From Escherichia coli (lineage in GTDB: Bacteria; Pseudomonadota; Gammaproteobacteria; Enterobacterales; Enterobacteriaceae), in NCBI RefSeq assembly GCF_050320075.1, contig NZ_CP190018.1: a stretch of 64,000 nt of DNA, one strand, 5' to 3'. Below the pieces are notes generated by a model that was not told the origin of the DNA, did not search any database, and saw nothing but the letters and a program-made list of their open reading frames with translations. This document shows, piece after piece, positions 9,961 to 38,985 of the stretch; position 1 is the first letter of the stretch; the number at the start of each line of letters is the position of its first letter. Position numbers and translations under genes: made by a program.

Positions 9961-11209
9961 GAGTTCCCCGCGCCAGCGGGGATAAACCGTTTGCTGAGTG
10001 TGCATACACACTTGAACATCAGAGTTCCCCGCGCCAGCGGGGATAAACCGCTATCAGTAACAACCTGGTAAATATCGGTTTTGAGTTCCCCGCGCCAGCG
10101 GGGATAAACCGTTTTCGGGGCCATAAATGGCGCTCATTTATGTGAGTTCCCCGCGCCAGCGGGGATAAACCGGGAAAATAAACGCGTTATTCCTTGATGG
10201 GTGCGAGTTCCCCGCGCCAGCGGGGATAAACCGAGCAACAGGTATTTCATATGGCCTGCCGTGCTGAGTTCCCCGCGCCAGCGGGGATAAACCGGCCAGC
10301 GGCGCTGAGTACGACGACCTGATTAAGAGTTCCCCGCGCCAGCGGGGATAAACCGTCAATACAACAGCAATGCTGGAGCTGGAAAAAGAGTTCCCCGCGC
10401 CAGCGGGGATAAACCGTGGTGGGATAGCTGCTCTGCCAGCGTGTCGCGGAGTTCCCCGCGCCAGCGGGGATAAACCGTGGGCGCAGCTCATGTATTCCAA
10501 TAAGGATATGAGTTCCCCGCGCCAGCGGGGATAAACCGAGATTCGCGCAATGTACGGTAAAGACAGCACCGAGTTCCCCGCGCCAGCGGGGATAAACCGC
10601 CATTCTTGTTGTCGTTCATCAAGCGCAGGGGGAGTTTCCCGCGCCAGCGGGGATAAACCGTTTGTTTTGATGATTTATCAGTATATGAATTGGAGTTCCC
10701 CGCGCCAGCGGGGATAAACCGATTTTTGCGCGGCCTGCATGAAACCAGTGGCAAAGTTCCCCGCGCCAGCGGGGATAAACCGGTACCGTTGAGCAATGGT
10801 GGGTAAATGGTGCTGAGTTCCCCGCGCCAGCGGGGATAAACCGATTTAGATACGGCACACAGGAATGCGCTGGATGAGTTCCCCGCGCCAGCGGGGATAA
10901 ACCGCATGGGAGTCCAGATTACAAATTCCAGAATGGGAGTTCCCCGCGCCAGCGGGGATAAACCGCGCCAGTCTGAGGTTTTCCGGTCATACATCGTGAG
11001 TTCCCCGCGCCAGCGGGGATAAACCGACCGTTGCTACACATATGATCAGGCATGTGCCGAGTTCCCCGCGCCAGCGGGGATAAACCGGACGATGAGACGC
11101 CCTGGTGTGCCGCGTTCGTGAGTTCCCCGCGCCAGCGGGGATAAACCGCGTTTAGCTCCGCAATGTTGGATATCACTGATGAGTTCCCCGCACCAGCGGG
11201 AATAAACCA
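9961..11209 (+). CRISPR. CRISPR array A: 21 repeats of 29 bp (gagttccccgcgccagcggggataaaccg) and 20 spacers of 32 bp; terminal repeat degenerate
   Basis: exact 61-bp periodicity with repeat starts at 9961, 10022, 10083 ... 11120, 11181; variant repeats at 10632 (gagtttccc) and 10754 (aagttcc); last repeat gagttccccgcaccagcgggaataaaccac. Confidence 0.98.
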
Positions 11210-11680: not shown

Positions 11681-11800
11681 GGGATAAACCGAACTAGTTA
11701 AAGTTTTTATTATGTTCCCTGCATCAGCGGGGATAAACCGGACTTGTTATCATTTTTTAAGTTGTCGAACTTATGTTCCCCGCGCCAGCGGGGATAACCA
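11681..11800 (+). CRISPR. degenerate CRISPR remnant: one 3' partial repeat plus two decayed repeats, no recognisable leader
   Basis: gggataaaccg at 11681..11691; atgttccctgcatcagcggggataaaccg at 11712..11740; atgttccccgcgccagcggggataacca at 11773..11800, with a 32-bp spacer between the last two. Confidence 0.75.
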
Positions 11801-11846
11801 TTCAGGTATGTTCAGGCCGGGCAGTTTCCCGCCCGGTCTTCCTCAC

Positions 11847-14807: not shown

Positions 14808-14823
14808 TGTGATTACGATCACA
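14808..14823. promoter_or_regulatory. candidate CRP binding site TGTGA-ttacga-TCACA in the divergent yqcE/ygcW control region
   Basis: perfect match to both half-sites of the CRP consensus TGTGA-N6-TCACA. Confidence 0.55.
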
Positions 14824-20350: not shown

Positions 20351-21124
<774 letters not shown>

Positions 21125-21228
21125 ATCAGCATACTTGTCCTTAGCCTTCTGCAGTGACAGCTGGTAGTACAGCGTGCTTCTGGCCAGCCCTGCAGCCTTT
21201 AACAGGTCAGACTGGCAGTGTCCGCACC

Positions 21229-21759
21229 TCAGGCTCCGGATGACTTTCGTTTTTTCTCCAGCTCCTGGCGCTTTTTTTCCAGGAGATGCTCCTGCATGGC
21301 TTTCAGATATGCATTTTCTGCGCGAAGATAACGTAGCTCATTCTTCATCTCTTCCGGCGTCATGTTTGCCTCGTTTTCATGGGTATCATCAGAACGGGTC
21401 ATGCTTTTCTCCTTCCTGCGCCTGATAAAGGCCTCATTACCAGATTTGCGGTAGCCTTTTATCCAGTTTTTAACCGTGTTGTGGCTGGGAATGTTAAACC
21501 GGGCAGCTACCCGGGGTAGAGACTCAGAATGCCCGAGAGCATAAAGAACCACGCAAAGTTTATCTTCAGGAGAATAGCTACGCTTGTGTCTGCAATCCAG
21601 TGCCCGAGGACCGTGAAGAAGAAAAAGATTAATCCAGTGTGAGAGGCTGGTGTGAGAAAGTTGAAAGAGTTTTGCCGTAGAAATGATGCCTGCATGACCA
21701 GCCAGGTAATGATTTACAGCGGCAAGTTTTACTTCAAATGAATGTTTCATAAACTGCAC
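21229..21759 (-). CDS. IS3-family transposase orfA (HTH plus leucine-zipper region)
   Basis: 176-aa ORF; A AAA AAG frameshift motif at about 21271..21279 (minus-strand ctggaaaaaaagcg) near its 3' end. Confidence 0.85.
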   Translation of the reverse strand: MQFMKHSFEVKLAAVNHYLAGHAGIISTAKLFQLSHTSLSHWINLFLLHGPRALDCRHKRSYSPEDKLCVVLYALGHSESLPRVAARFNIPSHNTVKNWIKGYRKSGNEAFIRRRKEKSMTRSDDTHENEANMTPEEMKNELRYLRAENAYLKAMQEHLLEKKRQELEKKRKSSGA

Positions 21760-29688: not shown

Positions 29689-32388
29689 ATGCGTAAATAT
29701 CCTTTAAGTTTACTGAAGGATAAAAATATTGTGACTTTTTTTGATTTCTGGGGAAAAACCCGACGCGGCGAGAAAGACGGGGGCGACGACTATCACCTTC
29801 TTTGCTGGCATTCGCTGGATGTAGCCGCGATGGGCTATTTAATGGTTAAAAGCAATTGCTTCGGGCTGACTGACTATTTTCGTCAACTAGGTTTCGCTGA
29901 TACGGAGCAGGCAGCACAATTTTTCGCCTGGCTATTGTGCTGGCACGATACTGGAAAATTTGCCCGCTCTTTTCAGCAACTTTACCTGCACCCACAACTC
30001 AAGGTTCCGGAAGGCGCAAGAAAGAATTACGAAAAGATCTCTCATTCAACGCTGGGCTACTGGCTGTGGCATCATTATTTAAGTGAATACGAAGAATTGC
30101 TTCCTTCATCTTCACTCTCTCCGCGCAAACTTAAACGGGTGATGGAGATGTGGATGCCCATGACTACCGGGCATCATGGTCGGCCCCCTGACCGTATTGA
30201 TGAACTGGATAATTTTCTGCCTGAAGACAAAGCTGCCGCACGAGATTTTCTCCTTGAAATCAAGGTACTGTTTCCGCTCATCGAGATCCCCGCATTCTGG
30301 GATGATGACGAGGGCATTGAACTTTTAAAACAACTTTCCTGGTATATCTCTGCAACCGTCGTACTCGCAGACTGGACGGGATCGTCAACGCGGTTTTTTC
30401 CACGCGTTGCACAGGCAATGGATATTAAAGATTACTGGCAGAAGGCTTTAGTTCAGGCTCAAAACGCCTTAACCGTCTTTCCTCCAAAAGCACAAACCGC
30501 GCCTTTCACCGGAATTAATACGCTGTTTCCTTTTATTGAGCACCCGACACCGTTACAGCAAAAGGTGCTGGATCTGGATATCAGCCAGCCTGGGCCACAG
30601 TTATTTATTCTGGAGGATGTGACTGGCGCAGGTAAAACAGAAGCGGCGCTTATCCTGGCCCACAGGTTGATGGCTGCGGGGAAAGCACAGGGTTTGTTTT
30701 TTGGCCTGCCAACAATGGCAACGGCCAATGCCATGTACGATCGGCTGGTAAAAACCTGGCTTGCTTTCTATTCGCCAGAATCCCGCCCCAGCCTGGTGCT
30801 GGCACACAGTGCCCGCACATTAATGGACCGCTTTAATGAATCACTCTGGTCCGGTGATTTAGTCGGGTCAGAAGAACCGGATGAACAAGCGTTCAGTCAG
30901 GGATGTGCGGCCTGGTTTGCCGACAGTAACAAGAAGGCGTTGCTGGCTGAAATTGGCGTCGGCACGCTGGATCAGGCGATGATGGCGGTGATGCCGTTTA
31001 AACATAATAATCTGCGGCTTCTGGGACTGAGTAACAAAATCCTGCTGGCTGATGAGATCCATGCCTGTGACGCTTACATGTCGTGCATTCTTGAAGGATT
31101 GATTGAGCGGCAGGCGCGTGGAGGAAACAGCGTTATTTTGCTTTCTGCCACGTTATCTCAACAGCAGCGCGACAAACTCGTTGCTGCCTTTGCGCGTGGT
31201 GCAGAGGGCCAGCAAGAAGCTCCGTTCCTGGAAAAGGATGATTACCCCTGGCTGACGCACGTTACGAAATCGGATGTGCATTCACACCGGGTAGCAACGC
31301 GCAAAGACGTTGAGCGTAGCGTGAGCGTGGGTTGGCTTCATAGCGAACAAGAATGTATTGCGCGTATCGAATCGGCAGTAAGTCAGGGGAAATGCATCGC
31401 CTGGATCCGGAATTCTGTCGATGACGCTATTAAGGTTTATCGTCAGTTGCTTGCCCGCGGCGTCATTCCTGCTTCCAGCCTTTCTCTGTTTCATAGCCGC
31501 TTTGCTTTTAGCGATCGCCAGCGAATTGAAACGGAAACGCTGGCACGCTTCGGTAAAAGTTGTAGTTTACAGAGATCATCGCAAGTCATTGTTTGTACAC
31601 AAGTAATTGAACAAAGTGTGGATATTGACCTGGACGAAATGATATCCGACCTGGCCCCTGTTGATTTGCTGATCCAACGGGCGGGGCGATTACAGCGGCA
31701 TATCCGCGATATTAATGGTCAGTTAAAGCGTGACGGAAAAGACGAGCGTTCCCCTCCTGAATTGCTGATTCTGGCCCCCGTCTGGGACGACGCTCCAGGT
31801 GACGAATGGTTCGGCAGTGCCATGCGTAACAGTGCATATGTCTATCCCGATCATGGACGAATCTGGCTGACGCAGCGTGTACTGCGTGAGCAAGGCGCGA
31901 TTCAAATGCCACACGCAGCCCGCCTTCTTATTGAATCAGTCTACGGTGAGGACGTGGTAATGCCGGAAGGATTTGCCCGCAGCGAGCAGGAACAAGTGGG
32001 CAAATATTACTGCGATCGCGCAATGGCTAAAAAGTTTGTGCTGAACTTCAGGCCCGGCTATGCCGCCAATATCAACGATTACCTCCCGGAAAAACTGTCG
32101 ACACGTCTGGCTGAGGAGTCTGTTTCCCTGTGGCTGTCTACCTGTATTGCCGGTGTGGTGAAGCCTTATGCCAACGGTGCTCACGCATGGGAAATGAGCG
32201 TTGTCAGAGTGCGTCGAAGCTGGTGGAAAAAACATCGGGATGAGTTTTCTTTACTGGAAGGGGATGCGTTCAGGCAGTGGTGCATTGAACAGCGGCAAGA
32301 GCCGGAGATGGCAAACGTGATTTTAGTCACCGATGACGAAAGTTGCGGGTATTCGGCTATGGAAGGATTGACTGGCAAGGTTGGTTGA
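29689..32388 (+). CDS. cas3: Cas3 HD-nuclease/helicase, type I-E
   Basis: 899-aa ORF; N-terminal HD domain, Walker A (EDVTGAGKTEAA), DEIH box (LLADEIHACD); heads the cas operon. Confidence 0.93.
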   Translation: MRKYPLSLLKDKNIVTFFDFWGKTRRGEKDGGDDYHLLCWHSLDVAAMGYLMVKSNCFGLTDYFRQLGFADTEQAAQFFAWLLCWHDTGKFARSFQQLYLHPQLKVPEGARKNYEKISHSTLGYWLWHHYLSEYEELLPSSSLSPRKLKRVMEMWMPMTTGHHGRPPDRIDELDNFLPEDKAAARDFLLEIKVLFPLIEIPAFWDDDEGIELLKQLSWYISATVVLADWTGSSTRFFPRVAQAMDIKDYWQKALVQAQNALTVFPPKAQTAPFTGINTLFPFIEHPTPLQQKVLDLDISQPGPQLFILEDVTGAGKTEAALILAHRLMAAGKAQGLFFGLPTMATANAMYDRLVKTWLAFYSPESRPSLVLAHSARTLMDRFNESLWSGDLVGSEEPDEQAFSQGCAAWFADSNKKALLAEIGVGTLDQAMMAVMPFKHNNLRLLGLSNKILLADEIHACDAYMSCILEGLIERQARGGNSVILLSATLSQQQRDKLVAAFARGAEGQQEAPFLEKDDYPWLTHVTKSDVHSHRVATRKDVERSVSVGWLHSEQECIARIESAVSQGKCIAWIRNSVDDAIKVYRQLLARGVIPASSLSLFHSRFAFSDRQRIETETLARFGKSCSLQRSSQVIVCTQVIEQSVDIDLDEMISDLAPVDLLIQRAGRLQRHIRDINGQLKRDGKDERSPPELLILAPVWDDAPGDEWFGSAMRNSAYVYPDHGRIWLTQRVLREQGAIQMPHAARLLIESVYGEDVVMPEGFARSEQEQVGKYYCDRAMAKKFVLNFRPGYAANINDYLPEKLSTRLAEESVSLWLSTCIAGVVKPYANGAHAWEMSVVRVRRSWWKKHRDEFSLLEGDAFRQWCIEQRQEPEMANVILVTDDESCGYSAMEGLTGKVG

Positions 32389-32485
32389 GATGCCTGCGAC
32401 AGGGCTCTCTGAATAGTTGATACACCGAAAAGGATGGAATGATGGACAACCGACCAGGGATGGTCTTTTTTACGAGAGGATGCGT

Positions 32486-34048
32486 ATGAACTCGTTTTCA
32501 CTTCTGACAACCCCGTGGTTGCCCGTTCGTTATAAAGACGGAACGACAGGCAAACTGGCGCCAGTCGATCTGGCGGATGAAAATGTTGTCGATATCGCTG
32601 CGCCGCGGGCAGATCTCCAGGGGGCGGCATGGCAGTTTTTGCTGGGACTATTACAAACCAGCTTCGCGCCAAAAGATCAACGTCGTTGGGATGATATCTG
32701 GGAAGACGGACTGGAAGCTGAAAAGCTACGGGAAGCATTGCTGTCATTAGACCATGCTTTCCAGTTCGGGCCAGATTCACCTTCATTTATGCAGGATTTT
32801 GAGGCGCTCACGGGAGATAAAGTTCCGGTCGCTTCGCTACTGCCTGAGATTCCCGGCGTTCAAACAACAAAGTTTAATAAAGACCACTTTATCAAGCGTG
32901 GTGTAACGGAACACCTGTGCCCACAGTGTTCTGCACTAGCCTTGTTCTCTCTACAGTTAAATGCGCCGTCAGGTGGCAAAGGCTATCGCACCGGCTTACG
33001 CGGCGGTGGGCCGATGACCACGCTGATTGAATTACAGGAATATCAGGGCAATCAACAAACTCCCTTGTGGCGCAAACTATGGCTCAACGTGATGCCGCAG
33101 GATGAAGCCGACTTACCGCTACCCAAAAAATTTGACGATCTGATTTTCCCCTGGCTAGGCCCGACGCGTACCAGCGAACTGGCCGGTGCGGTGGTAACCC
33201 ATGATCAGGTCAATAAACTCCAGGCGTACTGGGGAATGCCGCGGCGTATACGTATTGATTTTAATACCACGACAGTCGGCAACTGCGATATTTGCGACGA
33301 GCAGAACGACGCGCTCCTGAGCCTGATGACGACCAAAAATTATGGTGCCAATTATGCCATGTGGCAGCATCCCTTAACGCCTTACCGTGTACCACTTAAA
33401 GAGGGGGGCGAGTTTTACTCCGTTAAACCACAACCGGGCGGTTTAATCTGGCGCGACTGGTTAGGCCTTATCGAAACGGGTAAATCAGAAAACAATACGG
33501 AACTTCCCGCGCTGGTGGTGAAACTCTTTAATGCCAGCAGTCTGAAACAGGCAAAAGTGGGCCTATGGGGATTTGGTTATGATTTTGACAACATGAAAGC
33601 GCGCTGTTGGTACGAACACCATTTCCCGCTACTGCTCAATAAAAAAGAAGGCCAGATACCGAAGCTGCGGCTGGCTGCGCAAACGGCTTCACGGATTCTG
33701 AGTCTGTTACGGAGTGCATTGAAAGAAGCATGGTTCTCCGATCCAAAAGGTGCAAGGGGTGATTTCAGTTTTGTGGATATCGACTTCTGGAACAAAACTC
33801 AGCATCGCTTCCTGAGGTTAGTGCGCCAAATTGAAGAAGGTCAGGATGCGGATGAATTACTCGGCAAATGGCAAAAGGAAATTTGGTTATTCGCGCGTCA
33901 GGATTTTGACGAGCGTGTATTCACTAATCCTTATGAGCCCGTTGATTTGAAACGCGTCATGACCGCGCGCAAGAAATATTTTACAACATCGGCGGAGAAG
34001 CAAAGTGCTAAAGCCGCCAGGGAGAAAAAGCAGGAGGCTGCTGAATGA
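32486..34048 (+). CDS. cse1: Cse1/CasA (Cas8e) large Cascade subunit; start taken at MNSFSLLTTPWLP (ORF opens at 32417)
   Basis: position between cas3 and cse2; about 520 aa; N-terminus aligns by eye with the CasA N-terminal pattern. Confidence 0.85.
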   Translation: MNSFSLLTTPWLPVRYKDGTTGKLAPVDLADENVVDIAAPRADLQGAAWQFLLGLLQTSFAPKDQRRWDDIWEDGLEAEKLREALLSLDHAFQFGPDSPSFMQDFEALTGDKVPVASLLPEIPGVQTTKFNKDHFIKRGVTEHLCPQCSALALFSLQLNAPSGGKGYRTGLRGGGPMTTLIELQEYQGNQQTPLWRKLWLNVMPQDEADLPLPKKFDDLIFPWLGPTRTSELAGAVVTHDQVNKLQAYWGMPRRIRIDFNTTTVGNCDICDEQNDALLSLMTTKNYGANYAMWQHPLTPYRVPLKEGGEFYSVKPQPGGLIWRDWLGLIETGKSENNTELPALVVKLFNASSLKQAKVGLWGFGYDFDNMKARCWYEHHFPLLLNKKEGQIPKLRLAAQTASRILSLLRSALKEAWFSDPKGARGDFSFVDIDFWNKTQHRFLRLVRQIEEGQDADELLGKWQKEIWLFARQDFDERVFTNPYEPVDLKRVMTARKKYFTTSAEKQSAKAAREKKQEAAE

Positions 34049-34581
34049 GTATTGTAAAAGAGGAGCACAAAGCCACGCTGCGTAAATGGCACGAAGAGTT
34101 GCAGGAAAAACGCGGCAATCGTGCCAGTCTGCGGCGTAGCACAACGGTTAATGATGTTTGTCTGTCAGAAGGGTTTCGTTCTCTGCTGATGCAGACCCAC
34201 ACTTTGTGGAAAATTGAAGCACAAGAGTGGCGTTTTACCGCACTGGCGCTGGTCGCCGCAGTTAGCGCCAATGTTAAAGCTATTGATGAACGGCAGCCTT
34301 TTGCCGCGCAGCTGGCGGCGGTAATGTCGGAGGGGCGTTTTACTCGCCTGTCGGCAGTAAAAACGCCTGATGATTTACTGCGTCAGTTACGTCGCGCGGT
34401 CAAATTATTAAATGGTTCCGTCAATCTTATCTCTTTGGCAGAAGATATTTTCCGCTGGTGCCAGGAGAGCGACGACCTGCTCAATCATCACCGCCGCCAG
34501 CAGCGGCCAACAGAATTTATCCGTATCCGCTGGGCGCTGGAATATTACCAGGCTGGCGACGCCGATAACGAACAAAATTAA
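34045..34581 (+). CDS. cse2: Cse2/CasB small Cascade subunit
   Basis: 178-aa ORF overlapping the cse1 stop by 4 bp; Arg-rich helical protein in the expected operon position. Confidence 0.85.
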   Translation: MSIVKEEHKATLRKWHEELQEKRGNRASLRRSTTVNDVCLSEGFRSLLMQTHTLWKIEAQEWRFTALALVAAVSANVKAIDERQPFAAQLAAVMSEGRFTRLSAVKTPDDLLRQLRRAVKLLNGSVNLISLAEDIFRWCQESDDLLNHHRRQQRPTEFIRIRWALEYYQAGDADNEQN

Positions 34582-34595
34582 TAAAGGACTATCTC

Positions 34596-35651
34596 ATGAC
34601 GACATTTATTCAGCTTCATTTGTTAACCGCTTACCCTGCTGCCAACCTTAACCGTGATGACACCGGTGCGCCAAAAACTGTGGTACTGGGTGGAGCAACG
34701 CGTCTGCGCGTTTCCTCACAAAGTCTGAAACGTGCGTGGCGCACTTCTGCACTTTTTGAACAGGCACTGGCGGGCCATATTGGTATTCGCAGTGGGCGTA
34801 TTGCGCGTGAGGCGGCAACTATCCTGATTGAGAAAGGCATCGAAGAGAAAAAAGCCATCGAATGGGCGGCAAAAATTGCGGATTATCTTGGGAAAGCTAA
34901 AAACGACAAAAAACCAAAAGATCCGCTCACTAACGCCGAAACTGAACAGCTAGTCCATATCAGCCCGGCAGAATTTGACGCCGTAAAAGCGCTGGCCCAT
35001 CAACTGGCCGAAGAAAAGCGCGCGCCAAAAGAGGAAGATCTCGCTTTGTTACGTAAAGATCGCATGGCGGTAGATATCGCTATGTTTGGTCGTATGCTGG
35101 CGAATAAACCCGAATTTAATGTTGAAGCCGCCTGCCAGGTCGCGCATGCATTTGGTGTCAGTGAAACGATTGTCGAAGATGATTTTTTCACCGCCGTTGA
35201 TGATTTGCGCCAGGCTTCTGAAGATGCCGGTGCCGGGCATCTTGGTGAAACCGGATTCGGTTCTGCGCTGTTCTACACCTATATCTGCATCGATAAAGAT
35301 CTGCTGGTCGAAAACCTCGGCGGTGACGAAGCGTTAGCTAATCAGACCTTGCGCGCCTTTACGGAAGCCGCACTTAAAGTCTCCCCAACCGGCAAACAGA
35401 ACAGCTTTGCCAGCCGTGCCTACGCCTCCTGGGCGCTGGCAGAAAAAGGCACTGAACAACCACGCTCTCTGGCGGCGGCTTTCTATGAACCCATTAATGG
35501 CACCCGGCAGTTAGATGTGGCGGTGCAGCGTATTACAACGCTTCGCGAAAATATGAATACGGTCTATGAACAGAAGACCGAATGCGCAAGCTTTGACGTG
35601 ATGAACAAACAGGGAAGCATGAAGGACGTGCTGGACTTTATCTGCGCGTAA
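34596..35651 (+). CDS. cas7: Cas7/CasC Cascade backbone subunit
   Basis: 351-aa ORF MTTFIQLHLLTAYPAANLNRDDTG... (RAMP-like N-terminus); operon position. Confidence 0.88.
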   Translation: MTTFIQLHLLTAYPAANLNRDDTGAPKTVVLGGATRLRVSSQSLKRAWRTSALFEQALAGHIGIRSGRIAREAATILIEKGIEEKKAIEWAAKIADYLGKAKNDKKPKDPLTNAETEQLVHISPAEFDAVKALAHQLAEEKRAPKEEDLALLRKDRMAVDIAMFGRMLANKPEFNVEAACQVAHAFGVSETIVEDDFFTAVDDLRQASEDAGAGHLGETGFGSALFYTYICIDKDLLVENLGGDEALANQTLRAFTEAALKVSPTGKQNSFASRAYASWALAEKGTEQPRSLAAAFYEPINGTRQLDVAVQRITTLRENMNTVYEQKTECASFDVMNKQGSMKDVLDFICA

Positions 35652-35661
35652 GGGGCGGCTA

Positions 35662-36408
35662 ATGAGCCAATATTTGATTTTTCAGCTTCATGGGCCAATG
35701 GCATCCTGGGGCGTCGATGCCCCCGGCGAAGTGCGTCATACCCATGAACTGCCTTCGCGCTCAGCATTGCTGGGGCTGCTGGCTGCCGGGGTAGGGATTC
35801 GGCGTGATGATACCGAACGATTAAACGCGTTTAACAGCCACTATTCACTGGTGGTTTGCGCCAGCCGTAACCCGCGCTGGGCACGGGATTATCACACGGT
35901 CCAGATGCCAAAAGAGGTGCGTAAAGCGCGTTATTTCAGCCGTCGCGAAGAGTTGAGCGCCCCTGATCTTCTGAGCGCGATTATCTCCCGGCGCGACTAC
36001 TACACCGATGCCTGGTGGATGGTGGCGGTGGCAACAACCCCCGATGCGCCTTACAGGCTTGAACAGTTGCAGGACGGTTTACGTCATCCGGTTTTTCCGC
36101 TTTATCTGGGGCGAAAAAGTCATCCGCTGGCGTTACCACTTGCGCCGTTACTGCTCGAAGGCAACGCGTCTGATGTCTTACGTAACGCATACCAACAGTA
36201 TCAGGATAGTTTCCGCGAACTGAAAGTCTCACTCCCGAAACTTCAGGATGAATGCTGGTGGGAAGGGGAACACGACGGCCTGGTCGCGAGCAAAATATTA
36301 CGTCGCCGGGATGTTCCTTTAAATCGTCAGCAGTGGCTGTTTGGGGAACGCACCATCAATCAGGGGCCGTGGCTCAGCAAGGAGGAACCATGTACCTCTC
36401 AAGAATAA
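35662..36408 (+). CDS. cas5: Cas5/CasD Cascade subunit
   Basis: 248-aa ORF MSQYLIFQLHGPMASWG... (Cas5e N-terminal pattern); operon position. Confidence 0.88.
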   Translation: MSQYLIFQLHGPMASWGVDAPGEVRHTHELPSRSALLGLLAAGVGIRRDDTERLNAFNSHYSLVVCASRNPRWARDYHTVQMPKEVRKARYFSRREELSAPDLLSAIISRRDYYTDAWWMVAVATTPDAPYRLEQLQDGLRHPVFPLYLGRKSHPLALPLAPLLLEGNASDVLRNAYQQYQDSFRELKVSLPKLQDECWWEGEHDGLVASKILRRRDVPLNRQQWLFGERTINQGPWLSKEEPCTSQE

Positions 36409-37036
36409 CCTTACATACCGGCCAGCTTTCGCCTGCGCAGTTGCTGCATCTGGTGGATCGCGGTGAATATGTAATGCATCAGTGGCTGTGGGATCTTTTT
36501 CCTGGCGGCAAAGAAAGGCAATTTCTTTATCGTCGGGAAGAACTCCAGGGGGCGTTTCGCTTTTTTGTCCTGTCGCAGGAACGCCCGGCGGAAAGTGATA
36601 TTTTCACCATCGAATGCCGACCATTTGCGCCAGAGTTGCGTACCGGACAATCCCTTTGTTTCAACCTGCGGGCGAATCCAACAATTTGTAAAGCGGGCAA
36701 ACGCCACGACTTGCTGATGGAGGCGAAACGGCAGGTGAGGGGGCAGGTGGAAGGAAGTGATGTCTGGTTGCATCAACAACAGGCGGCGCTGGACTGGCTG
36801 GCAGCGCAGGGGGAAAGAAGCGGTTTTACACTACTGGATACCTCGGTCGATGCCTACCGACAACAGCAACTGCGGCGGGAAAACTCCCGGCAACTGATCC
36901 AGTTCAGTAGCGTGGATTATACGGGGATGCTTACGGTCACCGATCCTGGGTTATTTCTGCAACGTCTGAGCCAGGGGTATGGCAAAAGCCGCGCGTTCGG
37001 CTGTGGTCTGATGCTGATCAAACCCGGAGCAGAGGC

Positions 37037-37040
<4 letters not shown>
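36390..37040 (+). CDS. cas6e: Cas6e/CasE pre-crRNA endoribonuclease; start at MYLSRITL preceded by aggagg
   Basis: 216 aa; the MYLS start matches the Cas6e N-terminus as I recall it; C-terminal G-rich loop GYGKSRAFGCGLMLI; overlaps the cas5 stop. Confidence 0.88.
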
Positions 37041-38250
<1,210 letters not shown>

Positions 38251-38346
38251 GTTATCTGTTCTTTAAAAATAAGGAAATGTTTTAATTTAGTTGGTAGATT
38301 GTTGATGCGGAATAAATTTGTTTAAAAACAGTTATGTATGCTTAGT
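38251..38346 (+). promoter_or_regulatory. CRISPR leader for the cas-adjacent array B (AT-rich; agttggtagattgt motif at 38289..38302)
   Basis: AT-rich region between cas2 and the first repeat; shares motif and 58-bp spacing with the leader of array A. Confidence 0.75.
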
Positions 38347-38985
38347 GTGTTCCCCGCGTCAGCGGGGATAAACCGACAATCAGATCACGATCGATGCCTC
38401 GCGTGAGGTGTTCCCCGCGTCAGCGGGGATAAACCGATTTTCGCAGCGGGTAACCGCGCCCGGCGATCGTGTTCCCCGCGTCAGCGGGGATAAACCGTTT
38501 ATGTGGAGTATCAGTGCCTGGGTGGAAAGGTGTTCCCCGCGTCAGCGGGGATAAACCGTGGGGCTGAGCATGGCTAAACAACCGAGGCGCGTGTTCCCCG
38601 CGTCAGCGGGGATAAACCGGTCAACTGGCACCACAGGATGATGGCGGCGAAGTGTTCCCCGCGCCAGCGGGGATAAACCGCAGGTCGACCGACTGGAGGC
38701 GGAGATTGTCGGGTGTTCCCCGCGCCAGCGGGGATAAACCGTGTTGTTTTTCTGCCGGATTAACGCGGTGCGAGTGTTCCCCGCGCCAGCGGGGATAAAC
38801 CGTTGTCGGGCTTGTTCGGCGCGGGTTGTTAACTGTGTTCCCCGCGCCAGCGGGGATAAACCGCCAGCGAAGGACTTGCTCGTGTGGTTAAAGCCGTGTT
38901 CCCCGCGTCAGCGGGGATAAACCGGACGCACTGGATGCGATGATGGACATCACTTGGAGTTCCCCGCCCCTGCGGTAGAACTCCC
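38347..38985 (+). CRISPR. CRISPR array B: 11 repeats of 29 bp (gtgttccccgcg[t/c]cagcggggataaaccg), 10 spacers of 32 bp; terminal repeat degenerate
   Basis: 61-bp periodicity with repeat starts at 38347, 38408 ... 38896, 38957; last repeat gagttccccgcccctgcggtagaactccc. Confidence 0.98.

Follow-up and report, generated by a model that had tools for sequence, protein, structure and literature searches.

Loop variants in the repeats of an Escherichia coli type I-E CRISPR array stay with their spacers in related genomes, as expected from copying of the leader-proximal repeat

In the CRISPR array beside cas2 in an Escherichia coli chromosome, the repeats differ at one position of the hairpin loop (position 13, T or C), and the two forms are arranged in blocks. 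We consider it highly probable that this block pattern reflects polarised growth of the array, with a substitution in the leader-proximal repeat being copied at each acquisition. Four observations carry this reading. Each repeat variant co-segregates with its spacer in related arrays, the blocks are polarised with respect to the leader, the boundary between them is fixed, and the trailer of the array is conserved. The copying rule itself is taken from the literature, namely from an E. coli experiment of Yosef, Goren and Qimron (2012) that used the GAG and GTG repeats as labels (PMC3384332). The order of events that we propose below for this array is a reconstruction. The finding is an ordinary one of a kind already known, and no new mechanism is indicated.

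The DNA analysed is a stretch of 64,000 nucleotides from contig NZ_CP190018.1, which we call the window. It contains the standard E. coli type I-E CRISPR-Cas region, a locus of an already known type. Strain YZLc1-3 (NZ_CP123240.1) differs from the window at 2 nt in 34,001, and therefore its RefSeq annotation could be transferred to the window. On the plus strand, the order is queE, array A, a two-repeat remnant, ygcE, further genes, cysJIH, and hok, followed by cas3, casA, casB, cas7e, cas5e, cas6e, cas1e, cas2e, a leader, and array B, while iap lies on the minus strand beyond array B. Both arrays are oriented from leader to trailer on the plus strand. Array B (38347-38985, plus strand), which adjoins cas2, is CRISPR2.1 (cas2-iap), and array A, which adjoins queE, is CRISPR2.3 (queE-ygcE); these names follow the nomenclature of the Mojica group (PMC3903273). 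The cas operon (29689-38250, plus strand, transferred annotation) is a complete cas3-cse1-cse2-cas7-cas5-cas6e-cas1-cas2 operon, adjacent to array B and on the same strand as its AT-rich leader. This leader (38251-38346, plus strand), a CRISPR2.1 leader of type A (L1), occupies the 96 nt between the cas2e stop (38250) and the first repeat, and its last 61 nt together with the first repeat were matched in 1,834 E. coli genomes. [quoted passage not shown] Elsewhere in the window, the annotation of the near-identical record places an IS3-family transposase with a programmed frameshift at about 20400-21750, between ygcQ and ygcP; this insertion is absent at that site in K-12.

The repeats were located by a mismatch-tolerant (fuzzy-regex) scan and by repeat extraction, and all coordinates of an earlier, preliminary description of this DNA were reproduced. 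Array B has repeats at 38347 + 61n, ten of which begin with GTG and are followed by a degenerate eleventh (38957-38985). The preliminary description omitted the eleventh repeat from its text, although the end coordinate that it gave for the array includes it. Repeats R1 to R5 and R10 read GTGTTCCCCGCGTCAGCGGGGATAAACCG (13T, loop GTCA), and repeats R6 to R9 read GTGTTCCCCGCGCCAGCGGGGATAAACCG (13C, loop GCCA). The leader-proximal and youngest block thus consists of R1-R5 with spacers B1-B4 (38347-38619, plus strand), spacer B5 (38620-38651, plus strand) marks the boundary between 13T and 13C, and the older block consists of R6-R9 with spacers B6-B8 (38652-38863, plus strand). At the end of the array, R10 (GTG, 13T), spacer B10, and the degenerate terminal repeat GAGTTCCCCGCCCCTGCGGTAGAACTCCC form the CRISPR2.1 trailer, or anchor (38896-38985, plus strand). 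The T/C order of the ten repeats, TTTTTCCCCT, has three runs, which has a probability of 10/210 = 0.048 under random order. Duplicated spacers were sought in array B and none was found, all ten being unique.

Array A (9961-11209, plus strand; annotated as a CRISPR in NZ_CP123240.1) has 21 GAG repeats and 20 spacers, and its last repeat, starting at 11181, is degenerate. Two of its repeats carry single variants, both of them noted before and recovered by the scan: repeat 12 (10632-10660, plus strand, GAGTTTCCC) has 6T, and repeat 14 (10754-10782, plus strand, AAGTT) has 1A. The two-repeat remnant (11712-11801, plus strand) is CRISPR2.2. It has two degenerate repeats, the first with the loop ATCA (12A, 13T), and one spacer, of which K-12 and the other queE-side loci that were read have identical copies. 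Its repeats are those of K-12, except that position 13 of the second repeat is C here and T in K-12. In both arrays the repeats, which belong to the E. coli 'type 2', are 29 nt and the spacers 32 nt, with every spacing exactly 61 bp, and the repeat matches the published consensus GWGTTCCCCGCG(C/T)CAGCGGGGATAAACCG (sequences in PMC3737337 and PMC4524480). An Rfam 15 search of array B returned no family at the gathering threshold or at E <= 1; evidently Rfam has no model for this repeat, and the search was uninformative.

The contrast between a GTG array B and a GAG array A, and the loop pattern of repeats 1-5 and 10 versus 6-9, had been described before and were confirmed by the scan. The two forms GAG and GTG correspond to a published polymorphism, CRISPR-T and CRISPR-A respectively. 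Diez-Villasenor et al. (2013), who named the two types, wrote the opposite strand, so that their A corresponds to GTG here (PMC3737337). In CRISPR2.1, type A accompanies leader-A and the O157-type cas genes, cas-EO (PMC3737337). Almendros et al. (2014) called this variant E1 and found hok-sok in all arrangements except E2, the K-12 type (PMC3903273). The cas-adjacent array of the window has T at position 2 of the crRNA strand, and it is therefore of the CRISPR-A type. The arrays of these two studies share with the window the loci (cas2-iap and queE-ygcE), the 29-nt repeat, and the A/T polymorphism at position 2. They also agree with it in that GTG adjoins cas-EO/E1, which has a leader of its own, that hok lies upstream of cas3, and that the anchor repeat in the trailer is degenerate. 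Only the queE-side array differs, being GAG throughout here and GTG over a GAG trailer in K-12 and in strain HD12481; otherwise nothing essential sets the window apart. Array-specific variants are expected, because an array takes no template other than its own first repeat, and Yosef et al. handled GAG and GTG as two functional variants (PMC3384332). To call the repeats array-specific, as was done earlier, is correct within this genome, but the assignment is reversed in K-12, where GAG adjoins cas2 and GTG adjoins queE, and in each case the trailer repeat below is of the other type. In HD12481, there is more than one GAG trailer repeat beneath the queE-side GTG repeats.

In the hairpin predicted by folding, U5-C11 pair with G16-A22 and enclose the loop G12-N13-C14-A15. 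The repeat RNA can therefore form a Cas6e-type stem-loop, with a G+C-rich stem, (U)CCCCGC/GCGGGG(A), and a tetraloop of which position 13 is the second base. The predicted energy is the same with C13 and T13 (-15.2 kcal/mol), and the main forms of the repeat (GTG with 13T, GTG with 13C, and GAG) lie between -15.1 and -15.2 kcal/mol, with z of about -3.2 to -3.8. In the K-12 Cascade, Cas6e cleaves after G21, leaving an 8-nt 5' handle and a 21-nt 3' handle. The loop variant 13T is presumably without effect on crRNA processing. The preliminary description had placed the variants of array B in the loop with the stem CCCCGCG/CGCGGGG intact; the loop assignment is right, whereas the stem strings are slightly off. 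It had also stated that the variant at 10632 alters the stem. The C6-G21 pair is indeed affected, as 6T converts it to a U.G wobble, but the pairing is predicted to be weakened (-12.2 versus -15.1 kcal/mol) rather than lost. That polymorphisms are confined to unpaired positions describes a trend, with exceptions: 6T lies in the stem, and stem variants occur in relatives, 18A in K-12 and 7T and 8T in others. The repeat polymorphisms of both arrays are best explained as neutral or nearly neutral point substitutions.

A comparison proposed earlier, of whether particular spacer sets and loop variants go together across strains, could be made with related genomes. A query made of the ten B spacers only was run against 5,426 genomes, 498 of which share at least one spacer and 108 at least 80%. 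Fifteen spacer-sharing arrays were read, and eleven of them, the window's own included, share several B spacers. In all eleven, variant and spacer keep together: B1-B5 are preceded by 13T, x4 and B6-B9 by 13C, and B10 by 13T. Spacer x4, which lies between B5 and B6, is kept by many relatives and lost in the lineage of the window. The 13C repeats flank the same spacers B6-B8 in ten of the arrays read, and the spacers of sister strains that are newer than B1 (x2, x3, and x5) are all preceded by 13T. The 13T block is contiguous with the leader, and these newer spacers carry the same variant, as templating by the first repeat would have it. Moreover, the arrays form a nested series, in which that of FFFEB2 starts at B5, that of FDAARGOS_1276 starts at B4, the window follows, CFSAN061763 adds x3 and x2, and AHB5 adds x5. 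Such nested array lengths are what polar growth predicts.

The boundary was also followed at the population level, using queries of 90 nt and a strict E-value. The junction [13T]-B5-[13C] (38591-38680) is exact in 136 genomes. A junction with one mismatch was sought and none was found, the best non-exact match having 4 mismatches; therefore, there is no array with the boundary elsewhere. The boundary is fixed at B5 across the lineage, both in the 11 arrays and in the 136 genomes, which is again the outcome expected of templating. An array with [13C]-B5, the predicted ancestor, was not found in the junction query, and the mutation step itself is unobserved. Of the 1,834 genomes with this leader, no more than 147 match the leader and a 13T first repeat exactly. 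This number is close to that of the B5 lineage, which points to a single origin of the leader-proximal 13T. In the 5,426 genomes, B1-B5 was not seen on a different trailer, and every multi-spacer match listed extends to B10. Three genomes that matched only positions 148-801 of the first query were considered as a possible leader swap. This was rejected, since their arrays carry two extra newer spacers. Among plasmid records, most of the array B spacers occur in PLSDB NZ_LC542972.1 (246387-246968). This record of 293 kb is classed as an E. coli plasmid; its label may be wrong, or a piece of chromosome may lie on a plasmid.

B10 is the only spacer that strains DA33137 and AR_0015 have in common with the window. 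In both strains, seven leader-proximal repeats have 27T and are followed by two consensus (13C) repeats and then by the 13T-B10 trailer. We regard this 27T block as an independent example of the same process. The C27-to-T change falls within the crRNA 5' handle (AUAAAUCG), at a position that is otherwise as conserved as the stem.

The proposed mechanism is as follows. Cas1-Cas2 would integrate new spacers at the leader-repeat junction, and the leader-proximal repeat would be duplicated with each acquisition. A substitution in the first repeat would then be inherited by all later repeats and appear as a block touching the leader, whereas a substitution in an internal repeat would stay a singleton and be passed on vertically with its neighbouring spacers. 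Applied to array B, R10 (13T), B10, and the degenerate repeat would be an ancient trailer, above which spacers B9 to x4 would have been added while the first repeat had 13C. After the acquisition of B5, C13 of the first repeat would have changed to T, and B4 to B1 (and x3, x2, and x5 in sister strains) would have inherited the T. Finally, x4 would have been deleted in the lineage of the window.

The templating shown by Yosef et al. (PMC3384332) predicts a leader-anchored block whenever repeat 1 acquires a variant, and both the 13T block here and the 27T block in DA33137 and AR_0015 match the prediction. Their work used engineered two-repeat arrays, a laboratory assay in BL21-AI, and position 2 of the repeat, whereas here natural arrays were read and the variant lies in the loop. 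The 136 genomes thus provide a confirmation from natural populations of what the laboratory had shown, namely that the leader-proximal repeat is the template for new repeats. The preliminary description took the block pattern as a sign of recombination or of duplication of repeat-spacer blocks rather than of random drift. It was right that the blocks are not random drift, and the repeats within a block are identical by descent, but recombination or block duplication is unsupported, as no spacer is duplicated and the boundary is fixed.

Several points speak against the copying scenario, among them the missing [13C]-B5 ancestor noted above and, as described below, recombination in E. coli arrays and the presence of single spacers B6 and B8 in otherwise unrelated arrays. 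The scenario also needs two separate T states at position 13, one in the trailer and one from the later C-to-T change, which is a coincidence unless this position mutates, or is tolerated, unusually often. In addition, in Atlantibacter sp. RC6 a 13C array contains an internal run of five 13T repeats, and a second array on the same contig is 13T throughout. Inter-array transfer of repeat-spacer units and back-and-forth mutation are candidate explanations of this run, and some block patterns in this repeat family may involve inter-array exchange.

The T of the trailer can be treated separately from the T of the young block. The trailer of R10, B10, and the degenerate repeat also occurs in four arrays that share no other spacer with array B. 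It is present in K-12 with a few substitutions, the K-12 repeat reading GTG...ATCA, and it is conserved in K-12, in ETEC1748, and in strains without cas genes. The 13T of R10 is an old state of the trailer and needs no link to the young R1-R5 block, because the trailer is old and common even to K-12. Repeat mutations are known to be more frequent at array ends than in the interior (PMC8047081, PMC12839519). Garrett (2021; PMC8047081) and a survey of repeat mutations (PMC12839519) describe a degenerate last repeat and a conserved oldest spacer across divergent arrays, as here. There is no relevant difference from this known terminal-repeat degeneracy, the 13T of R10 being simply part of the old trailer. 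Array collapse followed by replenishment from the terminal repeat, an idea found in PMC8047081, was considered as a source of the leader-proximal 13T and rejected, since B6-B9 are retained between R10 and the block. In strains 2452 and Z1323CEC0003, an IS421 transposase is annotated in place of the cas operon, no cas genes are annotated in the stretch read, and a six-repeat array with the same 13T trailer remains beside iap. In ETEC1748, a spacer (x39) sits in the place of B9 and is only loosely similar to it, with gaps.

Variation at position 13 recurs outside E. coli. In a cross-species survey with one genome per species, the exact 13T repeat was present in 17 loci. Citrobacter sedlakii has 13T in 24 of the 24 full-length repeats of its array, the locus containing 21 exact copies of the 29-nt 13T string, and 13T is also the consensus of a whole array in Atlantibacter sp. 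RC6 (one array) and in Serratia inhibens (one array). In these three species GTCA fills whole arrays, whereas in the window it occupies part of one array. 13T singletons or short blocks were seen in arrays of Enterobacter, Citrobacter, Erwinia, Edaphovirga, Samsonia, Pantoea, Salmonella diarizonae, and Serratia. Enterobacterial type I-E repeats that differ only in the tetraloop (GCCA, GTCA, GAGA, GCGA, and GCTA on this strand) have also been reported, in a Serratia survey (PMC9981886) among others.

Variant events were counted per position in 39 distinct arrays, and the counts are used qualitatively only. Position 13 had 23 events, a number inflated by the cross-species loci, which were found by a 13T search, with about 8 events independent of that search. 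Position 14 had 7 events, position 29 had 17, its base entering with the spacer, and each stem position had on average fewer than one. Positions 13 and 14 are thus the most often variant of the true repeat positions, with the same inflation for 13T, while the unpaired bases 23-28 of the 5' handle are as conserved as the stem. Recurrence at the loop cytosines is unremarkable, and a second hit at position 13 is plausible. A stronger claim would be that C13 and C14 are a mutational hot spot, for example by deamination of cytosine in an extruded hairpin of the palindromic repeat, and, separately, that some internal blocks, such as that of Atlantibacter sp. RC6, may record transfer between the two arrays of a genome. 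We hold this only as a tentative and rather doubtful idea. If there were such a hot spot, C/T toggling at position 13 would recur in many lineages, and the order of acquisitions might be read from it as from an inbuilt label. A hot spot caused by a Dcm site at C13 was rejected, as CCAGC is not CCWGG.

Among the explanations that compete with first-repeat copying, the 13T block of B1-B5 or the 13C block of B6-B9 could have been imported by homologous recombination through the repeats. Recombination and divergence in spacer order have been inferred for E. coli type I-E arrays, where recombination contributes generally to array evolution (PMC4524480), and exchange of cas genes, leader, and possibly the array module has been documented at this locus (PMC3903273). 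An exact copy of B6 (38681-38712) lies among unrelated spacers in the HD12481 array on the queE side, and B8 (38803-38834) occurs between unrelated spacers in the cas-adjacent array of ETEC1748, either by independent acquisition or by lateral transfer of single spacers. The internal 13T block of Atlantibacter sp. RC6, with its second array all 13T, would also fit such an import. However, single spacers (B6 and B8) are all that array B has in common with unrelated arrays, and none of its spacers is duplicated. Among the matches listed from the 498 spacer-sharing genomes, none had B1-B5 without B6-B10, and no donor context for B1-B5 or for x4-B9 was seen. A donor within the genome is lacking, because array A is GAG and 13C. 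Furthermore, the boundary is identical in all 136 genomes, the 13T first repeat is essentially restricted to the B5 lineage, and the simpler copying mechanism predicts exactly the polarity seen. We therefore consider an imported block unlikely.

Short-patch gene conversion is another explanation, in which the first repeat took its T from R10 or from the CRISPR2.2 remnant and this T was then propagated by normal acquisition. The same base is present at the same position in R10 and in the remnant at 11712, and a parallel mutation would be unnecessary. Nevertheless, the conversion tract would have to fit inside a 29-bp repeat, and nothing seen here points directly to conversion, which in sequence data looks the same as a point mutation. 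13T singletons in arrays of many species, with no 13T donor in the stretch examined, show that de novo C-to-T changes are evidently common. Gene conversion is thus very unlikely to be the source of the block. Finally, an artefact of sequencing or assembly, or a mis-drawn repeat/spacer boundary, is scarcely credible: short reads make repeats difficult to assemble, position 1 lies directly against the spacer, and the base at position 29 is known to be brought in by the spacer (PMC3737337), but the same variants are in the same places in many independently sequenced complete genomes, which refutes an artefact for 13T, 2T, and 6T, and positions 6 and 13 are internal to repeats of an exact 61-bp period. 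For these reasons of period and recurrence, the variants are not spacer-edge bases, a concern raised in the preliminary description.

The single variants of array A behave as copying from the first repeat would lead one to expect of internal substitutions. 6T is also found in strains SCU-109 and GMF065, and 1A in four other loci; both occur in several independent genomes and are therefore neither errors nor recent. They remain singletons because they are internal substitutions that were never in the templating position. In GMF065, A12-A18 are deleted and 6T remains beside the upstream spacer A11. In WP9-S17-ESBL-11 and AF60, A14-A17 are deleted and 1A remains beside the upstream spacer A13. 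In Z142-2, A11 is missing and the surviving repeat is the consensus. This behaviour is consistent with recombination between repeats having caused the deletions, the crossovers lying 3' of these 5'-proximal positions. Alternatively, 1A could have arisen from an aberrant integration that replaced base 1 of the repeat. Repeat variants in this locus are reliable markers of shared ancestry, with which acquisitions can be ordered and deletion breakpoints located (6T follows A11, and 1A follows A13), and they are useful for CRISPR-based strain typing.

A search for protospacers of the ten B spacers found none in phages, and its plasmid matches were CRISPR arrays or due to chance. For spacer A1, there are matches to a hypothetical gene in another chromosome and in a record of 111 kb. 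In array A, the second and third newest spacers, A2 (10051-10082) and A3 (10112-10143), are perfectly matched by protospacers in pVTB777v-3, a 31-kb VirB-type conjugative plasmid. The two protospacers (at 14823 and 18689 of the plasmid) share a strand, and ATG precedes each of them. For spacers of leader-A-associated arrays, this trinucleotide (CAT when read on the opposite strand) has been reported as the most frequent PAM (PMC3737337).
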